DNA from: a virus
DNA length: 64,000 nucleotides
Direction: 5' to 3' (one strand)
Virus record (IMG/VR): IMGVR_UViG_3300038760_000071
Location: 16,260 to 80,259 of that record
Every line of letters begins with the position of its first letter. Position 1 is the first letter of the stretch. Below are positions 15,776 to 28,513 of this stretch, piece after piece. Position numbers and translations under genes: made by a program. The notes beneath the pieces were generated by a model. That model ran no database searches and was not told where the DNA came from. It saw nothing but the letters and a program-made list of their open reading frames with translations.

Positions 15776-16507
15776 TTAGTCACTAGATAAGAGACTAACA
15801 TCTATTTCTACTAGAGCACCATCTTCAAATGTTAGATAATCATTACATTTTGTCTTAACATCAACAATAAAATCAAGTATAATATTATTAAGCTTTAATG
15901 GTAACCTCTCTATAACTGATTTTTTTTCATAAACACTGATATCATTAAAATCTAGCGTTATTTCTCCTATTTCGACAGATTGAACATATTTCATAATCTC
16001 ATATGTTAGCAATAGACTTACCGTATCTGTCTTTTTTTGATCATCAGACAACTTATTTAATTCCGCCACCAATCTTTTGCATATAGAAGTATCTGTTGTG
16101 AGGGTAGGTATTCGTAAATTGCATGTAATATTATCGCTTGTTACAGATTGAGTTTCAGTAAATGAATTGTAATCGATATCTTTCAATTCATTTAAATCAT
16201 ACTGTTTGTCTTTAATTGTAATGTGATCTTTAAGAGATAACTTTCTCAAATTAATAATAATAACCGGCTTATCAACGATATTAAATTCAATAGATTCCTT
16301 ACAATTATTAACTATAAATTCATTATAAAGAATATTACTATTAATAATACCAGTAACACCTTCAAACGCTGTTCTAAGTAATTGCTTTTGCTGATTAACG
16401 TTAAACAGATCAAATTCTATACTCTTATTAATAGATGGTACATGTACTACCGCAACTGTGTTATCACCAGTCTTTTCGAGCTCAGTTAGAAATTCTTTAA
16501 TATCCAC
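15776..16507 (-). CDS. Baseplate hub assembly protein (gp26-like)
   Basis: VPSINKSIEF..FNVNQQKQLL N-terminus and IERLP motif. Confidence 0.6.
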   Translation of the reverse strand: MDIKEFLTELEKTGDNTVAVVHVPSINKSIEFDLFNVNQQKQLLRTAFEGVTGIINSNILYNEFIVNNCKESIEFNIVDKPVIIINLRKLSLKDHITIKDKQYDLNELKDIDYNSFTETQSVTSDNITCNLRIPTLTTDTSICKRLVAELNKLSDDQKKTDTVSLLLTYEIMKYVQSVEIGEITLDFNDISVYEKKSVIERLPLKLNNIILDFIVDVKTKCNDYLTFEDGALVEIDVSLLSSD

Positions 16508-21772: not shown

Positions 21773-23266
21773 TTATGCTAAAGGCTCATATCCAAACATT
21801 GATAGCTCATTCATATCATCTTGAGCTTGATCAGCACCCATACCGAAAACTATAGGCGGTAAGCAAGAATTATTATCACCCACTATTTCATTATCTAAAT
21901 ATAAAGATGTTGCATCTTCAAAATATTGAATACCGAAATCCATTTGTTCAATAGTAGCAGGTTTACCTCGCTCATCTAGTTCCACAATTTCAAAAAATCT
22001 TTCTGTTATTTCTTTCTCTAGAATGAACAGAGCGTATAGCAATGACATCACTCTATCATCATGATGACTTCTCCTAGCCTTCCATGTACCGTTTGGCCAT
22101 CGAACAAAATTCTTAAGCTCAGTTAAAGTTTCTATATCATTAATCTGAACTGCTCGTACATCATTAATAAAATATCGCATGTTTAATACACCCTGATATT
22201 TTGTATTAGTATGAGCAATCATACCTAGCATTATATTTTTCCTATGAGCCGCTTTATTACCATATGATACAATTTTCTCATATCCCATATCATTCGCTAA
22301 CCTATCTACAACTTGTGCACCACAATTATTACGCTCAATTAATGCCAACGGCATGCCGTAGTTACGGAGAACAGAATATACCTTAGTTGCAAATTCAAGA
22401 GGAGGTATTTTATTGCTAGTATAACAAGCAACCTGCCGTATATCTTTAATATCTGTTATATCTAATATTTGTATACATGATGAGTCGGCACCAACACCCT
22501 CCGCTGTATCAACACCAGCAACATAAACACGTGATGGGTCTGCCTCTTCCCATATCTTATAATGACCATCATCTAAAATAATTTTTGGATCTCGAGTCTT
22601 AGAAACCATCTCCTCAAATAAATCATCATCAATTGATGATTCACCTGTTGATAAAAATTCGCAATTAAATTCTTGTCTCCACGCATCATTTGATCCAATT
22701 GCCTGTCTAGTAGATTTAACCCAATCATCATCTCTATCCGGCACTTCATGCCACATAATTTTATCATGCGCCCAGCCATTTTCACCATCCACTGCACCCT
22801 TATATAATGTATGAAATAGATTATCATTACCATTTGCGGTACTACATACAAATACCTTGGATTTCTTCGACGATGTAATTACTGGAAAAACTGACTTCCA
22901 AAACTCCTCAATTAGGTGAGTGTTATGGGAGAGAATACCGTTAGTATAATACTTATGCGTCCTCTCAACCTCAACAAAATCATAAACCTTCTCTTCACGA
23001 CCAATATCAATAATATCAACAACCTCACATAGACCATCTACAGTTTTAATTCTATGACCTATTGAATCACATGCAAGAATAACATCCCCAGCTGCATCAA
23101 TAAACCCATGGTTTTTAGATACGTGTATATAATCACCGTTATCTAAAACAACTTGAAATAGCTTCTTCTTTGAATATTCAGCAATACCCTTAAAGTCTCT
23201 CCAACCCTCATCTGTTTCTATTTCCCATTCATCATTAGGAATGAATCTTTCTATATCTTCTCGCAT
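21773..23266 (-). CDS. terL: Terminase large subunit, C-terminal fragment, with an N-terminal split-intein C part (IntC2, aa 1-115)
   Basis: ...VYDFVEVERTHKYYTNGILSHN|THLIEEFWKSVFPVITS; then STANG, QEFNCEF, GVDTAEG, IERNN and HDDRVMS motifs of gp17. Confidence 0.92.
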   Translation of the reverse strand: MREDIERFIPNDEWEIETDEGWRDFKGIAEYSKKKLFQVVLDNGDYIHVSKNHGFIDAAGDVILACDSIGHRIKTVDGLCEVVDIIDIGREEKVYDFVEVERTHKYYTNGILSHNTHLIEEFWKSVFPVITSSKKSKVFVCSTANGNDNLFHTLYKGAVDGENGWAHDKIMWHEVPDRDDDWVKSTRQAIGSNDAWRQEFNCEFLSTGESSIDDDLFEEMVSKTRDPKIILDDGHYKIWEEADPSRVYVAGVDTAEGVGADSSCIQILDITDIKDIRQVACYTSNKIPPLEFATKVYSVLRNYGMPLALIERNNCGAQVVDRLANDMGYEKIVSYGNKAAHRKNIMLGMIAHTNTKYQGVLNMRYFINDVRAVQINDIETLTELKNFVRWPNGTWKARRSHHDDRVMSLLYALFILEKEITERFFEIVELDERGKPATIEQMDFGIQYFEDATSLYLDNEIVGDNNSCLPPIVFGMGADQAQDDMNELSMFGYEPLA

Positions 23267-24426
23267 AAGTCTTCTTTTGTTATTATCTTAAAAGCATAAT
23301 CATTCTCTCTACACCACAATCGAGCTGCTTCAAACTTCGACTGATTCAAAGGTTGATTTACAAACTCACGTGGCTTTACCTCGTATAATACTTTATTTAC
23401 CTGATCACAAAAATCGACAATGTAAACTCGTTCCTTATTATCATATGTGTAAGGAATTCGAATTAATTCATAATCTAAATGAGGATTATTTTCATGAAAC
23501 ATTACCTCCCAACTACTACGATAATTATTAAGTCCAGTTAACTCTGAATATAACTTTTTATTGGAATATCTGTTGTTTGTATTTGGTGTAAATTCTCCGG
23601 TTAAAATCTTATTCCTCATAACATCGCTCATCTTTTTATATATTCCCCTAGCTCTATTTTTTTTTGTGAGTTTATCTCTCTTATCTTTTGTCCACGTCTT
23701 CTTATTTGACGTAGATATCTTGCTTTTTGTTGTTTCGCTATGATGGTATCCCCTACGAGATTTCACTCTCCGCTCTTTAACATCACCAGATTGCAAATAA
23801 GACAAATCACGATCCTTCCCAATAGTACTCAAAACATCACTAATACATCGCTTCTTACTACACGTTTTATTCAAGAAGAATGTATTCCTATTTTTAAAGC
23901 TGCAATAATCACCACATATACAGTATATTGAATCATTACACATACTTGCAAATTTATATTTAATATCCTCAATACCTTCTGTATGTTTAGATATATTGTG
24001 AATTAAGTCCTTATCATTTAGCAATGATGTATAGGCTGCTCGTTGAACATAGTCAGATAATCGTAGCATCGTCTCATCCGGAGGCATTGATATACCATCT
24101 TCAAAGATACCATCTTTTAATCTATCAATAAAGGATGCAATTGACTTTCCACTAAACGACACACCACCTTTAACATAGCCACGTTTATAGCTAATAAACT
24201 TCAAGTCTGGTAGGTAGTCGACATCATTAACTATATGATATAACTTTTGACCGAGTGGTAGCTCATCTAACGTAGGTGTATCTCTATAATACTCATTTAT
24301 AAAATTATAAACCTTCTCACCATCTTCGTATTTATCATACCATGCTCTATAATATGAGTTTTTATTAAGCTTCTTATCCTCAAAGAAATCAACTATACAT
24401 GACTGCATATAACGTTTATCGATCAT
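23251..24426 (-). CDS. Free-standing homing endonuclease (NUMOD3-like DNA-binding + TnsA-like PD-(D/E)XK domain)
   Basis: HHSETTKSKISTSNK and YRSSWE...YELIRIPY...YIVDF...EVKP motifs; lies between the halves of split intein 2. Confidence 0.7.
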   Translation of the reverse strand: MIDKRYMQSCIVDFFEDKKLNKNSYYRAWYDKYEDGEKVYNFINEYYRDTPTLDELPLGQKLYHIVNDVDYLPDLKFISYKRGYVKGGVSFSGKSIASFIDRLKDGIFEDGISMPPDETMLRLSDYVQRAAYTSLLNDKDLIHNISKHTEGIEDIKYKFASMCNDSIYCICGDYCSFKNRNTFFLNKTCSKKRCISDVLSTIGKDRDLSYLQSGDVKERRVKSRRGYHHSETTKSKISTSNKKTWTKDKRDKLTKKNRARGIYKKMSDVMRNKILTGEFTPNTNNRYSNKKLYSELTGLNNYRSSWEVMFHENNPHLDYELIRIPYTYDNKERVYIVDFCDQVNKVLYEVKPREFVNQPLNQSKFEAARLWCRENDYAFKIITKEDLCEKI

Positions 24427-24434
24427 ATATTTAT

Positions 24435-24902
24435 TTATGTCTTTTGGATAATATTCTCAATACTTCTTGTGACTATCTCCCCTGTATTTTTATTACGTAG
24501 CCTTACTGTAGTATCTTTAGACACACACTCAATGAAAGCCATCTCATCAATCACTAAGCATTGATGACTTAATACACCGTTAGCGTAATATGTATGAGTT
24601 TTCTCAACTTCTAGCAGCTCGTATACTTTACTATCATCAGTGTAAGTGGCAATATCGGTAATTTCAATACCACCATATAATTTATTTTTAATTAAAAGAT
24701 CTTTTGCATAAACGATCTCCTCGTTTTCTGCTAACAGTTTATGTAGAGGTGTACATATTAACTCTTTATCACTAGAGAGTGTGAGTTTAATTTTTGAAGG
24801 GTTACTACCGATTATAAGCCCTTTAAAGTCTCTGAAACCGTCGTTTGTTAGTACTTGATATTTGCTATTTTTAAAGCATTTATATTTTGTTAAGTCTGCC
24901 AT
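24435..24902 (-). CDS. terL: Terminase large subunit middle fragment: IntC1 (114 aa) + 11-aa Walker B extein + IntN2 (30 aa)
   Basis: ...HTYYANGVLSHQ|CLVIDEMAFIE|CVSKDTTVRLRNKNTGEIVTRSIENIIQKT. Confidence 0.9.
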   Translation of the reverse strand: MADLTKYKCFKNSKYQVLTNDGFRDFKGLIIGSNPSKIKLTLSSDKELICTPLHKLLAENEEIVYAKDLLIKNKLYGGIEITDIATYTDDSKVYELLEVEKTHTYYANGVLSHQCLVIDEMAFIECVSKDTTVRLRNKNTGEIVTRSIENIIQKT

Positions 24903-24906
24903 CTTA

Positions 24907-25824
24907 CTATTTTATTTTTGTTTCGAGATTTGTACCTCTTTTTGGGAAGCATTTAGGACAAGCGGGTCTATGACCAATAGATAAATCATGATAAAATCTA
25001 GCGTCACACTCTTGACATACCCATTTATATTTTTTATACAGTGCAACTCCGTTATACGTCTCATCCAACTTAACGTTATAATCTGTCTCAATTTTAGAGA
25101 TTAATTTAACTTGCTTTGTAAAAATGGCGCGCTGCGTAATAGCCTCAGATTGCATTGGGTTATCTACACCATATTTTTCATTCAATGTCTTTCGAGCTTT
25201 ATTTTTATAATCTTCAGTCTGAAAAAAGTGATCAACACCGTATTTTAAGTTATTATGTTTAACTCGTGTTGTCTTAAGCTTAGATATATCGCTACACGTT
25301 TTATTACTCCATGTATTAATCACTTTACTTTTAAAATCCTCGCTCTGCTGGTATATCTCGCTCCCGTATTTCTCCTGGTTGGTTGCCTTACTATGTGATT
25401 GACCGGCTTTTGATTGCAACCAAGACGTTGCACCATATTTCTCTATATTAGTTAATTTAATCTCCTCAACATTATATTTATTACTACATTTACGACAACA
25501 AAACTTACCATACCCGGATTTAAAATCCCGGTATTTGAGAATACTATTACACTGCATGCATGTTGGTGTCTCTGATATATTATGACACACATTATACGCA
25601 TTACGAGCAAATGTTAACTCAGAGTCATATAGTTCATGTTGCTTTATAAATGTCACTTCATCACCGTGGAGATATTTCGGAAAAACCTTAGGTATATTTG
25701 TAAGCGTTAATAGTACACTATTCACATCCATAATAGTATTTATTACCCAATTGGGTAAAGCCACCGGTAAAGGTATTATATTTTTAATTGTCCAGGAATA
25801 TAGGAAGTAACTCCCCACCTTCAA
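24907..25824 (-). CDS. Homing-endonuclease-like protein with EKYG repeats and zinc ribbons, apparently lacking its nuclease domain
   Basis: Repeated EKYG/LKYGV units and CxxC pairs; ends just after CPKCFP; lies between the halves of split intein 1; true start may be downstream (MDVNSV). Confidence 0.55.
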   Translation of the reverse strand: MKVGSYFLYSWTIKNIIPLPVALPNWVINTIMDVNSVLLTLTNIPKVFPKYLHGDEVTFIKQHELYDSELTFARNAYNVCHNISETPTCMQCNSILKYRDFKSGYGKFCCRKCSNKYNVEEIKLTNIEKYGATSWLQSKAGQSHSKATNQEKYGSEIYQQSEDFKSKVINTWSNKTCSDISKLKTTRVKHNNLKYGVDHFFQTEDYKNKARKTLNEKYGVDNPMQSEAITQRAIFTKQVKLISKIETDYNVKLDETYNGVALYKKYKWVCQECDARFYHDLSIGHRPACPKCFPKRGTNLETKIK

Positions 25825-27478
25825 ATTCAGCTGCTAACTCCTCCATGGAGCAATCAAATGTTAACCCAGTTTCTTTATCTTTCAACGTTATTATTGTCTC
25901 CCCGTCGACACAGTTGACGGATTGGCCACGGGCTGCTGACCCGGTCGTAGTAGTAATACCTATACGAGAGCCATTCTCAAGGGTCATGGACGTTTTGGCA
26001 TATTCTTTAACAGGCGGCTTAAGCCAGTTAGGTAGTTCCTCATATGCCATCCGAACTCTTTGAAATATTTCAATCGCAGTAGCTTCTTTGTTAGCTACTA
26101 GCAATATTCGCTGATCTGCATTAAAGCATGCTTGCCAGAGGATATAAATTGTCATCATTGTCGAGTTGTGAGTAGGTATATACTGATTACCTGCGAGAAA
26201 TTGCGAATCTTCACTATCAACAGTTATACACCTAACAGGAACCGATTCAACAAGCTCTATATTCTTTATAAAGTGATACTGCCCCCTTATTTTAAAGTTA
26301 TGCTTCTTCTCTTGATGCTTTATTCTTTTCTGCTTAAACGATAATAGAGCTACATCTTCAATTGGTTTAAATGTTATAGATGAGCATGGCTTACATTCCA
26401 CACCATTAAGTGTCGGTATATAGTCTTTTAATGTAACCTTATACCCTAGACTTTCAGTTAACTGCTTTACCTGTCTAGTGAGATTCTTATTTGTGTTATA
26501 AAACTGACATGTACCTGCTTTATTTATATAGCCATCACTATCAACTAAACCTTGCAGTAACTGTAATCGTTGCTCTCTACTCGCTAACATATAATCAACG
26601 GGTATATGTTTATTATTGAGTAAGTTATTATGTCTTAATAACGAACTAAGACTCTTTGTTTGTATATCAGACTCAACAGTAGGGCGAATAAAATAATTTT
26701 TCGAATTGTAGTTTTTAATAATAAGCTTATCAAATTGCTCTATCTTATCAAATATTTTAATCTGTTCGTCTATATCTCTATGACCAACTGTTATTGTACC
26801 GGTAGCAGATGTACCATCACCTAACCACAAGCCTAGGACATAGGGATGTATAGGTAATTCTTTCTCTATACCCCCAACACCATTAATACATGTTGGTATT
26901 CTGTGATTAGGCTCAGGTCTCTTCTTACCACTATATAGTGTGTCTAAAATATCTCTTGTTGTCTTAACTGACCCACTACACTCCTTTCTACGATCACCCC
27001 TCGTCTGAGTAAACCATAAATGATCACCATCTGCAACTATCTCCTCCCCGTTATCAAATGTTACTTTATAACAGTCACGATCATATAATACATCATGCGC
27101 TTTTAAAACACTACACTGATCACCCTTATTATCGTATATAACATCACCAGATTTAATAGACCCCATATCCATCCACCCGGTTGGTGTTGGTATTGGTGTA
27201 TCTAATGCTAGTGCCTTACCTATCTGTCTACTTGCTAGCTGTATAAAGAATCGATTATCTCTCATCTTACGGATGGCTCGCTTTTGAGCAGGATATAGCT
27301 TAATAGTCTCACGCCCACGATCAAGATTAATAATATAGAAATAATTTTCAGCAAAATAGAGTATATTCTGACTCGCTTTCTTAAGCGCGTTCACTTGCGA
27401 TGTAGTATATTCACCTTTCCAGTTAACATTTGGTAGGTTTTTGTTACCCATGTAGAACATATTACTTTGCTGAGCCAT
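25784..27478 (-). CDS. terL: Terminase large subunit N-terminal fragment with a cis intein and a C-terminal split-intein N part (IntN1, last 42 aa)
   Basis: LYPAQ adenine-binding motif; Walker A SRQIGK|intein|ST; ends RGQSVN|CVDGETIITL... Confidence 0.92.
   Translation of the reverse strand: MAQQSNMFYMGNKNLPNVNWKGEYTTSQVNALKKASQNILYFAENYFYIINLDRGRETIKLYPAQKRAIRKMRDNRFFIQLASRQIGKALALDTPIPTPTGWMDMGSIKSGDVIYDNKGDQCSVLKAHDVLYDRDCYKVTFDNGEEIVADGDHLWFTQTRGDRRKECSGSVKTTRDILDTLYSGKKRPEPNHRIPTCINGVGGIEKELPIHPYVLGLWLGDGTSATGTITVGHRDIDEQIKIFDKIEQFDKLIIKNYNSKNYFIRPTVESDIQTKSLSSLLRHNNLLNNKHIPVDYMLASREQRLQLLQGLVDSDGYINKAGTCQFYNTNKNLTRQVKQLTESLGYKVTLKDYIPTLNGVECKPCSSITFKPIEDVALLSFKQKRIKHQEKKHNFKIRGQYHFIKNIELVESVPVRCITVDSEDSQFLAGNQYIPTHNSTMMTIYILWQACFNADQRILLVANKEATAIEIFQRVRMAYEELPNWLKPPVKEYAKTSMTLENGSRIGITTTTGSAARGQSVNCVDGETIITLKDKETGLTFDCSMEELAAEFEGGELLPIFLDN
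26165..27214 (-). mobile_element. 350-aa class-3 intein with LAGLIDADG endonuclease, inserted in the TerL Walker A motif
   Basis: Starts with Ala (ALALDTPIPTP); HLW in block B, VRCITV in block F, IPTHN|S end; LGLWLGDG and LQGLVDSDG LAGLIDADG motifs. Confidence 0.9.
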
Positions 27479-27511: not shown

Positions 27512-28513
27512 ATGTCTACAAAAGATTTAATGAATTTAGGTCAGGTATACGGTACAATATTTAACGACTTTAAAAAAACTATTGTCAAAGAAAGTACCGT
27601 GCCTAAAGGTGAAATTGGAAACGCGGATCTCGAGCAGAAAGGTGGTCCTGAAGAGACTGCCGGTTATAGCAGCGATAGAGTTGATATAGAAGATGAAGAT
27701 CAAAAAAGTAATGATTATAACATTAAAGGTCTTTCATACGGTAAGGGTAATAATCCAGGCAATACACAAAGCCCTCAACCAACTACAGGTGATGCTGCTC
27801 TATTAGGTATTGTAGGTGACGGAGACGAGGATGAGGAAGATACTAAAAATGATGAATATCCATATGAATGTGACTGTGGTGAAACGTGGAAGACAAAGGA
27901 CGCTGCATCGCAATGTAGTACTTGCCAGGGGCACAGTAATATACACGATGAGGATGAAGAAATTTTACATGAAACAGAGAAAATTGCGAGGAATGGACTA
28001 AATAATTTTATGAAGCGAAAATCAGTCTTTGATAAACTTTACGATAAGGTCATGGTTAGTGAAAACTTTGGTGAATTAGAACCCAGTGATCTTGACTCCC
28101 TCGGGTTAGATGACGCTGTACCAGATAGTGAACTAGGTGATGAAGGTGAAGATGGTGATGAAATCACCGTTACCCTTGATCGTTCAACAGCCCAAGCTTT
28201 ATGTGATGTATTGCAAGCAGCTATCGGGCATAGTGAAGATGGTGACGAAGATTTTGGTGCCGGTGATAGTGATGATGGGTTTGATGGGTTCGATGGTGAA
28301 GAGGATGAAGAGGGCGCACCAACCGCACTAAACACATCTTATAATGATGGAAAGTCCAATAAAGTTGGATCACTTAAAGCAAAAGGTGGGGCGACATTTA
28401 AAGGTACTAACATAAAGGTAGATACAGGCTCCACCCACTCCGGCAGCTATAATGATGGTAAAAATAACAAGGTTGGTAACCTCAAAACCAATCAATCAGC
28501 TTTCGAGCAGTAA
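27512..28513 (+). CDS. Acidic late protein, possible prohead core/scaffold
   Basis: Very D/E-rich; IVKES, ILHE and MVSE patterns; duplicated YNDGK.NKVG.LK at the C-terminus. Confidence 0.45.
   Translation: MSTKDLMNLGQVYGTIFNDFKKTIVKESTVPKGEIGNADLEQKGGPEETAGYSSDRVDIEDEDQKSNDYNIKGLSYGKGNNPGNTQSPQPTTGDAALLGIVGDGDEDEEDTKNDEYPYECDCGETWKTKDAASQCSTCQGHSNIHDEDEEILHETEKIARNGLNNFMKRKSVFDKLYDKVMVSENFGELEPSDLDSLGLDDAVPDSELGDEGEDGDEITVTLDRSTAQALCDVLQAAIGHSEDGDEDFGAGDSDDGFDGFDGEEDEEGAPTALNTSYNDGKSNKVGSLKAKGGATFKGTNIKVDTGSTHSGSYNDGKNNKVGNLKTNQSAFEQ

Follow-up and report, generated by a model that had tools for sequence, protein, structure and literature searches.

When an essential enzyme has to be joined from three polypeptides by two related split inteins, what keeps each intein half with its own partner? 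This question is raised by the large terminase subunit (TerL) locus in a 64,000-nucleotide stretch of viral DNA, here called the window, which covers positions 16,260 to 80,259 of IMG/VR record IMGVR_UViG_3300038760_000071, an 80-kb fragment of an uncultured virus with a completeness of about 38%. In this locus, TerL would be assembled from the products of genes A, B, and C by two split inteins, a and b, the N-terminal and C-terminal fragments of which (IntN1 with IntC1 for a; IntN2 with IntC2 for b) carry charges of mirror-image polarity. The original prediction took this reversal to be built-in orthogonality that blocks both skipping of the middle extein (IntN1 with IntC2) and self-cyclization of the middle protein (IntC1 with IntN2). 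Our analysis favors, as the probable explanation, that the polarity of each intein was inherited with the lineage of its insertion site, that charge forms a part of cognate recognition, and that orthogonality resides mostly in the whole interface, which is largely hydrophobic.

The intein fragments and gene pieces are as follows (amino acids, aa; open reading frame, ORF).

25784..27478, minus strand: gene A, 564 aa, N-terminal part of a T4 gp17-type TerL; the extein ends in ..ARGQSVN and is followed in frame by IntN1 (ORF list, translation)
25787..25912, minus strand: IntN1, 42 aa, net charge -9; block A core of about 30 aa plus the conserved tail GGELLPIFLDN
24435..24902, minus strand: gene B, 155 aa, IntC1 (114 aa), CLVIDEMAFIE, and IntN2 (30 aa) in that order (translation)
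24561..24902, minus strand: IntC1, 114 aa; blocks B (TPLH), F, and G; ends in SHQ (terminal Gln); basic head, +3 over the first 30 aa
24528..24560, minus strand: middle extein CLVIDEMAFIE, 11 aa; TerL Walker B with the catalytic Glu
24438..24527, minus strand: IntN2, 30 aa, net charge +3
21773..23266, minus strand: gene C, IntC2 and the remainder of TerL
22922..23266, minus strand: IntC2, 115 aa; block B SKNH; ends in SHN, followed by Thr at +1; head -7 (first 30 aa), overall -11
21773..22921, minus strand: TerL C-terminal extein, THLIEEFW..., with the remaining ATPase domain and then the nuclease domain (RNaseH-like) (Pfam Terminase_6C, Terminase_6N)

Two inteins of opposite charge polarity

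The opposite polarity of the two inteins is real and more extreme than expected by chance. All four charge counts of the original prediction were reproduced by script at the same coordinates, and the interval 22922-25912 runs exactly from the IntC2 end to the IntN1 start. IntN1 contains 11 D/E and 2 K in 42 aa (net -9), a count in which 12 of the 42 residues belong to the conserved tail beyond the core of about 30 aa, and the first 30 aa of IntC1 contain 6 K/R and 3 D (net +3; -1 for the whole of IntC1). IntN2 contains 6 K/R and 3 D/E in 30 aa (net +3), and the first 30 aa of IntC2 contain 11 D/E and 4 K/R (net -7; -11 for the whole of IntC2). Over the first 30 aa, both off-target pairings in the window are like-charged, i.e., -6 with -7 for IntN1 and IntC2, and +3 with +3 for IntN2 and IntC1. 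A polarity index was obtained by subtracting the net charge over the first 30 residues of IntC from that over the first 30 of IntN. In 57 cluster representatives of the family, this index has a median of 0 and a 5-95% range of -7 to +10. Intein a scores -9 (3.5th percentile) and intein b +10 (top 7%); 0.6% of random pairs of representatives differ by 19 or more, and 39% are merely opposite in sign.

Inteins a and b are paralogous, atypically split class 1 inteins of the AceL/GOS/Cat TerL family. In a sequence search, IntC1 matches CatC, the IntC of the consensus intein Cat (PDB 6DSL_B), at an E value of 7e-5; Pfam Intein_splicing stays below its cut-off. The AlphaFold2 (AF2) model of gene B (mean predicted local distance difference test, pLDDT, 86.5; predicted template modeling score, pTM, 0.79) has the same structure as its top Foldseek match (template modeling score 0.84, root-mean-square deviation 2.6 over 116 columns), followed by other inteins including VidaL. 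In both inteins the break lies after block A, with a short IntN (42 and 30 aa) ending one ORF and an IntC (114 and 115 aa) opening a later ORF on the same strand, and blocks B, F, and G of the HINT (Hedgehog/intein) fold are all on the large C-terminal fragment. The class 1 catalytic set is present, namely, Cys1 in both, TPLH (a) and SKNH (b) in block B, and the ends SHQ/C and SHN/T (a slash within a motif marks the splice junction). The deviation from this set is the terminal Gln of intein a, which is shared by the whole split site-a clade (SHQ/C, Gln for Asn). Identity is 32% between IntC1 and IntC2 and 33-36% between either of them and the IntC of a third site, c; IntN1 and IntN2 have 9 of 30 residues in common.

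The insertion points, RGQSVN/C for site a and AFIE/T for site b, together bracket Walker B. The joined flanks RGQSVN, CLVIDEMAFIE, and THLIEEFW agree with uninterrupted relatives (L032, L004) and with the Pfam terminase domains; CLVIDEMAFIE, the sole segment of gene B that would reach the mature enzyme, is uninterrupted in relatives (L032 ..GQSINCLFIDEAAHIE..). Site c (QEF/CEF) is uninterrupted in the window; the insertion site of AceL-TerL and GOS-TerL presumably resembles site c. In the split site-a clade, the IntN tail GG[ED][LI][LI]P[IV]F[LI].. is conserved (window 25822-25787, minus strand; homologues in L001-L018), as is a basic IntC head, MADLxxYK. Both are without counterpart in cis-splicing site-a inteins, and they may form an extra zipper at the break.

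Charge complementarity across the family

Relatives were collected by three IMG/VR scans with IntC alignments and one with gene B, from which 226 loci were examined, of at least 457 related stretches, and intein copies were called by hidden Markov models plus extein-context rules. This gave 213 TerL intein copies of the AceL/GOS/Cat family, corresponding to 126 unique IntN/IntC pairs and 85 clusters at 60% identity. Cis and split forms occur at six sites around the ATPase center, i.e., P (Walker A), a (RGxSxN/C), a2, a3, b (AFIE/T), and c (QEF/CEF), of which a2 and a3 lie within or just past Walker B.

Charge complementarity exists family-wide and is moderate. The net charges of IntN and of the IntC head (first 30 residues each) are anticorrelated, with a rho of -0.50 over 85 clusters (p 1e-6) and of -0.44 over 58 clusters, and split clusters carry opposite signs in 33 cases, the same sign in 13, and a zero in 22 (33 of 46 informative clusters opposite). 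Cis-splicing members show the anticorrelation as well (rho -0.48, n=17), and it therefore reflects contacts within the fold and not an adaptation to splitting. Much of it lies between sites, the mean IntN and IntC charges over the first 30 residues being +1.7 and -4.3 at P, -2.6 and +0.5 at a, +1.75 and -4.1 at b, and -0.9 and +2.6 at c. As a separate observation, mean polarity alternates along the gene over loci L001-L228 (P +/-, a -/+, b +/-, c -/+), a pattern that chance produces once in 8 over four sites.

The residue-level evidence is stronger than that from net charge. Column N11 of IntN covaries in charge with column C12 of IntC (r -0.74; -0.70 when site-centered; shuffled-null minimum -0.30), and further covarying columns are N12-C10 (-0.60), N9-C14 (-0.60), N13-C12 (-0.57), N13-C21 (-0.54), and N14-C10 (-0.53). 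Charge reversals are found at N11-C12 (R-E, K-Q, E-K) and at N14-C10 (E-K vs K-D), and the three inteins of L001 alone show three N11-C12 states (K-Q, R-E, E-K). For 3 of these 6 column pairs the two positions add up to 23, which is what two antiparallel strands would give, and both segments are strands in the AF2 model; from this pattern we infer that the residues of covarying columns touch. A score over the six pairs is +3 and +4 for the cognate pairings in the window, and +1 and +1 for the off-target ones.

These data suggest the following mechanism. Each IntN would form a short hairpin plus a helix that completes the large IntC, and charges very probably help cognate halves to recognize each other by a pattern of ion pairs between strands, in which IntN residues 9-14 would face the first IntC strand. 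For intein b the predicted ion pairs are R9-E14, R11-E12, and K13-E10, and for intein a D12/E14-K10 and K11-Q12. In combination with the charged segments beside them, these pairs would produce the opposite net polarity of the two inteins. This polarity, presumably inherited per insertion-site lineage and not gained through co-residence, probably adds some discrimination against both off-target pairings. Orthogonality itself most likely arises from the summed sequence-specific, largely hydrophobic contacts between halves that are only about 30% identical, and the conserved IntN tail of intein a may contribute.

Origin of the polarity and choice of partner

Both polarities of the window occur in relatives without the other of the two inteins. 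Site-a polarity is found where a is the only intein (-5/+2 in L004-6), and site-b polarity is found in a cis-splicing b, in a gene that lacks intein a (+2/-7 in L033). The polarities are hence a lineage trait and probably not a response to co-residence. The idea of character displacement, by which polarity would be stronger in co-resident inteins, was rejected, since the a-only copies of L004-6 and the cis-splicing b of L033 are as polarized as the copies in the window. Inteins of the same polarity also reside together, i.e., a with c in L003, L012, and L028, and P with b in L033 and L036. The middle proteins of L003 and L012 have a basic head on IntC (+3) and an acidic IntN (-5 to -8), the very combination that would have to be avoided under the orthogonality hypothesis; a middle protein of this kind (basic IntC, acidic IntN), with two same-polarity inteins per gene, also occurs in the protein clusters P0003, P0005 (9 sequences, 4 contigs), P0007, and P0010.

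The claim that reversed polarity bars skipping and cyclization is partly supported, in that the six-pair score favors the cognate pairings in the window. Over the family as a whole, charge mismatch of off-target pairs is not significant: among ten resolved lineages, the middle protein has an IntC head and an IntN of like charge in 6 and of opposite charge in 2, with 2 undecided (p 0.145), and the pairs that would skip the middle extein are like-charged in 5, opposite in 4, and undecided in 4. Similarly, the cognate halves in the window are charge-matched and the off-target ones like-charged, as predicted, while the lineage distribution and the same-polarity co-residence speak against the reversal as an evolved orthogonality device.

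The premise that split-intein association is electrostatically driven, on which the prediction relied, is established for inteins split at the endonuclease site. The association of atypically split inteins leans more on hydrophobic contacts, according to PMC11923092 and PMC11766414 (citing Stevens 2018). In a panel of 16 inteins, most cross-reactions involve atypically split ones (PMC7090010), one atypical IntC spliced with the IntN peptides of two other inteins (PMC3443213), and the IntN fragments of GOS-TerL and AceL-TerL are interchangeable (PMC11766414, citing Bachmann and Mootz 2015). Cross-reaction is thus a real risk, and the concern behind the hypothesis is legitimate.

Gene B was also said to have a natural SICLOPPS (split-intein circular ligation of peptides and proteins) layout. 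The domain order IntC-peptide-IntN does exist and recurs (the first 87 loci include 16 that encode 18 such proteins), and, as in SICLOPPS, one chain carries IntC, a short Cys-initial peptide, and IntN, with 11 residues being long enough to close. The parallel fails at the halves, which in SICLOPPS are cognate halves of one intein and in gene B come from two inteins with an identity of about 30%, each half having its natural partner on gene A or gene C. In the AF2 model, gene B forms an entire intein domain that includes IntN2 (pLDDT 92-93 for residues 131-150; 69-72 for the extein loop), and the geometry for cyclization appears sterically possible in this model. An AF2 monomer that completes the fold with a non-cognate IntN does not discriminate between partners and is no test of affinity. 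Cyclization of CLVIDEMAFIE would be a side reaction and not a function. No description of a natural protein with the IntC and IntN of two different split inteins was found in the literature searched, which did not cover most subscription journals.

It is possible that the mirror-image polarity acts as built-in orthogonality, yet that it is the principal, selected device, with like charges repelling IntN1 from IntC2 (no skipping) and IntN2 from IntC1 (no 11-mer cyclization), seems unlikely to us. Such selection would account for the like charges of both off-target pairs, the position of the window pair at the family extremes, the alternation over P, a, b, and c, and the like-charged middle proteins in 6 of 8 informative lineages. 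Charge swaps do yield orthogonal split inteins when engineered, and inverting the charge pattern of an intein pair lowers cross-reaction (Beyer et al. 2020, as summarized in PMC11766414). A barrier would also be useful, as short-IntN inteins cross-react readily (PMC7090010, PMC3443213) and the AF2 model of IntC1 completed by the non-cognate IntN2 presents no steric bar to that pairing. Against this stand the occurrence of both polarities in relatives without the other intein and in cis forms, the middle proteins that combine a basic IntC with an acidic IntN, and the unbiased skipping pairs; the 6:2 trend and the four-site alternation are, at p 0.145 and 1 in 8, within the reach of chance. Moreover, association in the AceL/GOS/Cat family is reported to be mainly hydrophobic (PMC11923092), and at residue level K11 and K13 of IntN1 would find suitable partners in E12 and E10 of IntC2.

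The two inteins might instead not be strictly orthogonal, so that some cyclo-11-mer, dead-end complexes of IntC1 and IntN2, or terminase without Walker B is formed and tolerated, because few functional terminases are needed per capsid and cognate pairs win kinetically. We consider this rather improbable, even though the interchangeable IntN fragments of GOS-TerL and AceL-TerL, the atypical IntC that accepts IntN peptides from two other inteins, the docking of IntN2 on IntC1 in the AF2 model, and the persistence of same-polarity combinations in nature would all fit. TerL is essential, and copies without Walker B could poison its pentameric motor, as judged from the working of T4-type terminases; identity between the halves is also low (about 30%), and orthogonality is the usual finding for unrelated inteins (15 of 16; PMC7090010). 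Least credible is that the three genes are remnants of a terminase that insertions of homing endonucleases have wrecked, with products that no longer come together as a functional enzyme. One intervening endonuclease gene (H1) is itself truncated and the record is fragmentary, but the catalytic intein residues and TerL motifs are all intact, the layout is kept at 76-80% identity on independent contigs, and a comparable terminase with several inteins occurs in the cultured Campylobacter phage CP21. The lack of a visible second TerL in the 80-kb record counts for little in the same direction.

Inheritance of polarity by insertion-site lineage, combined with recognition over the whole interface, is the explanation that we prefer, and several points weigh against it. 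The net-charge correlation is mostly non-significant within single sites, and the correlations are not independent of phylogeny; phylogenetically independent pairs run in the expected direction but are underpowered (p at least 0.125, two data sets). The residue contacts are derived from covariation and not from coordinates, and the area under the curve of 0.71, with which the six-pair score separates cognate from non-cognate pairs family-wide, is optimistic, as the pairs were chosen and evaluated on the same data. Lastly, the window pair lies beyond 99.4% of random pairs, and this fits selection for mismatch between neighbors, as do the alternation of polarity along P, a, b, and c and the 6:2 trend to like-charged middle proteins. 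A broader proposal builds on the latter points, i.e., that three- and four-piece terminases hold sets of naturally orthogonal split inteins with a cross-strand charge code (IntN 9-14 vs IntC 10-14), and that the alternation results from selection against pairing of neighbors; we put this forward as a speculation that has a small chance of being correct.

The locus, its relatives, and known systems

The source phage is T4-like, marine, and uncultured. The nearest relative of its tail sheath is that of Pelagibacter phage HTVC008M (43% identity over one third of the protein), and a megablast search of the locus against cultured phages gave no match. In the ORF list, the locus comprises five consecutive minus-strand genes (A, H1, B, H2, and C), and the remaining features are:

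26165..27214, minus strand: Walker A cis intein, contiguous, 350 aa, with LAGLIDADG endonuclease; SRQIGK/A...THN/S (Pfam, translation)
24907..25731, minus strand: H1, free-standing endonuclease-like gene (DUF7487, PHROG 3339 'homing endonuclease')
23251..24426, minus strand: H2, 391 aa, free-standing endonuclease with a C-terminal TnsA-like domain (Pfam PF08722, PHROG 15427 'endonuclease')

The third intein, which would splice in cis, splits the Walker A motif of gene A (Pfam LAGLIDADG_3 and Hom_end matches). It has Ala at its start (SRQIGK/ALALDTP), Trp after the block B His (GDHLW), a block F Cys (VRCITVD), and a Thr-His-Asn end, which by motif inspection matches the WCT pattern of class 3. 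The terminase would therefore need one cis-splicing and two trans-splicing reactions of two mechanistic classes, with class 3 assigned by motif only.

The last codons of IntN1 overlap only a program-called TTG start of the next ORF, and the likely start of H1 is the ATG at 25731. H1 is truncated and lacks the C-terminal half: it aligns, at 72% identity, with residues 2-272 of the 558-aa homologue that L003 has at this break, and ends there. At this break other relatives have a GIY-YIG gene (L001, L004-7) or a mere 60-nt gap (L002), and this varied content indicates turnover of the intervening gene. Divergent from gene A, at 27512-28513 on the plus strand, lies a 333-aa ORF with a very high content of Asp, Glu, and Gly; it contains acidic runs of low complexity and the motif CxC...CxxC.

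Close relatives differ in the sites that are split, with a alone in L004-7, b alone in L009, a and b in L002 and the window, and a and c in L003, L012, and the protein clusters P0003, P0005, P0007, and P0010. L001 (393-6246) encodes a four-piece terminase with three split inteins (a, b, and c) and three different intervening genes. Its site-c IntN begins with Ser (..QEFC/SCSEDT), and the +1 residue is Cys. This rare Ser1/Cys+1 pair is the one reported for GOS-TerL. In the IntC tree, sites P and b and the split form of a are each a supported clade; its deep branches are unresolved, and a sister grouping of P with b or of a with c was not shown. Apart from these, L024:3807-6506 and L029:4239-6833 are single ORFs of 865-900 aa that begin with a split IntC of site P, followed by two cis inteins of the same family. 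In L024 these cis inteins flank an 11-aa Walker B extein, CLFIDEAAHIE, so the a and b bracket exists in an all-cis form too.

The arrangement extends two known kinds, i.e., fractured genes and atypically split TerL inteins. Like AceL-TerL, GOS-TerL, and Cat, the window inteins have a phage TerL as host, are split after block A (IntN 25-42 aa, IntC 104-122 aa), and have the HINT fold and class 1 residues. Unlike these, they occupy other positions in TerL, on either side of Walker B; intein a has Gln as its last residue and a conserved IntN tail of 12 aa; and two split inteins (three in L001) occur on one protein. Dassa et al. 2009 (PMC2677866) list a terminase locus whose break lies at an unusual position, with an IntC of 122 aa, and report both charge polarities among split inteins; their charge analysis deals with splits at the endonuclease site. 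The fractured genes described there have an N-terminal part with IntN, a free-standing endonuclease gene, and an IntC with the C-terminal part on one strand. The window has the same order, with H1 and H2 between the intein halves on that strand, but its gene is in three pieces instead of two, and its middle protein carries the IntC and IntN of different inteins.

Shah et al. are said to have obtained charge-swapped orthogonal split inteins in 2011. Engineered charge-swap inteins are canonical or engineered splits and have been tested at the bench, whereas the window pair is natural, atypically split, and known from its sequence. DnaE-type 'capture and collapse' inteins are split at the endonuclease insertion site and have long strands of opposite charge on IntN and IntC; the window inteins are split after block A, and their charge complementarity lies on a different strand pair. 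Campylobacter phage CP21 (NC_019507, CP21_125 to CP21_127; 90462-94748; L087) is similar in that its TerL inteins are of the same family, with a Walker A intein in cis and site a split. Its site-a gap holds a 424-aa endonuclease-like gene, and after Walker B a cis intein sits at a3, with the 8-aa extein CNIIVVDE between the two. As 1 of its 3 inteins is split, CP21 differs from the window in having no IntC-extein-IntN middle protein. The CP21 record annotates separate terminase coding sequences, and the IntC region is unannotated.

For the attachment of synthetic peptides to proteins, split inteins with a short IntN are the tools of choice, yet they are the most cross-reactive. An essential enzyme that runs on two split inteins, or on three as in L001, offers candidate orthogonal pairs with an IntN of about 30 aa, and N9-14 and C10-14 are defined positions that may tune the choice of partner. 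The ATPase center of T4-type terminases is a hot spot that has been repeatedly colonized by one intein family, in cis and in split form, and, judging from the genomes surveyed, multi-step protein splicing of an essential enzyme appears to be common in uncultured phages.

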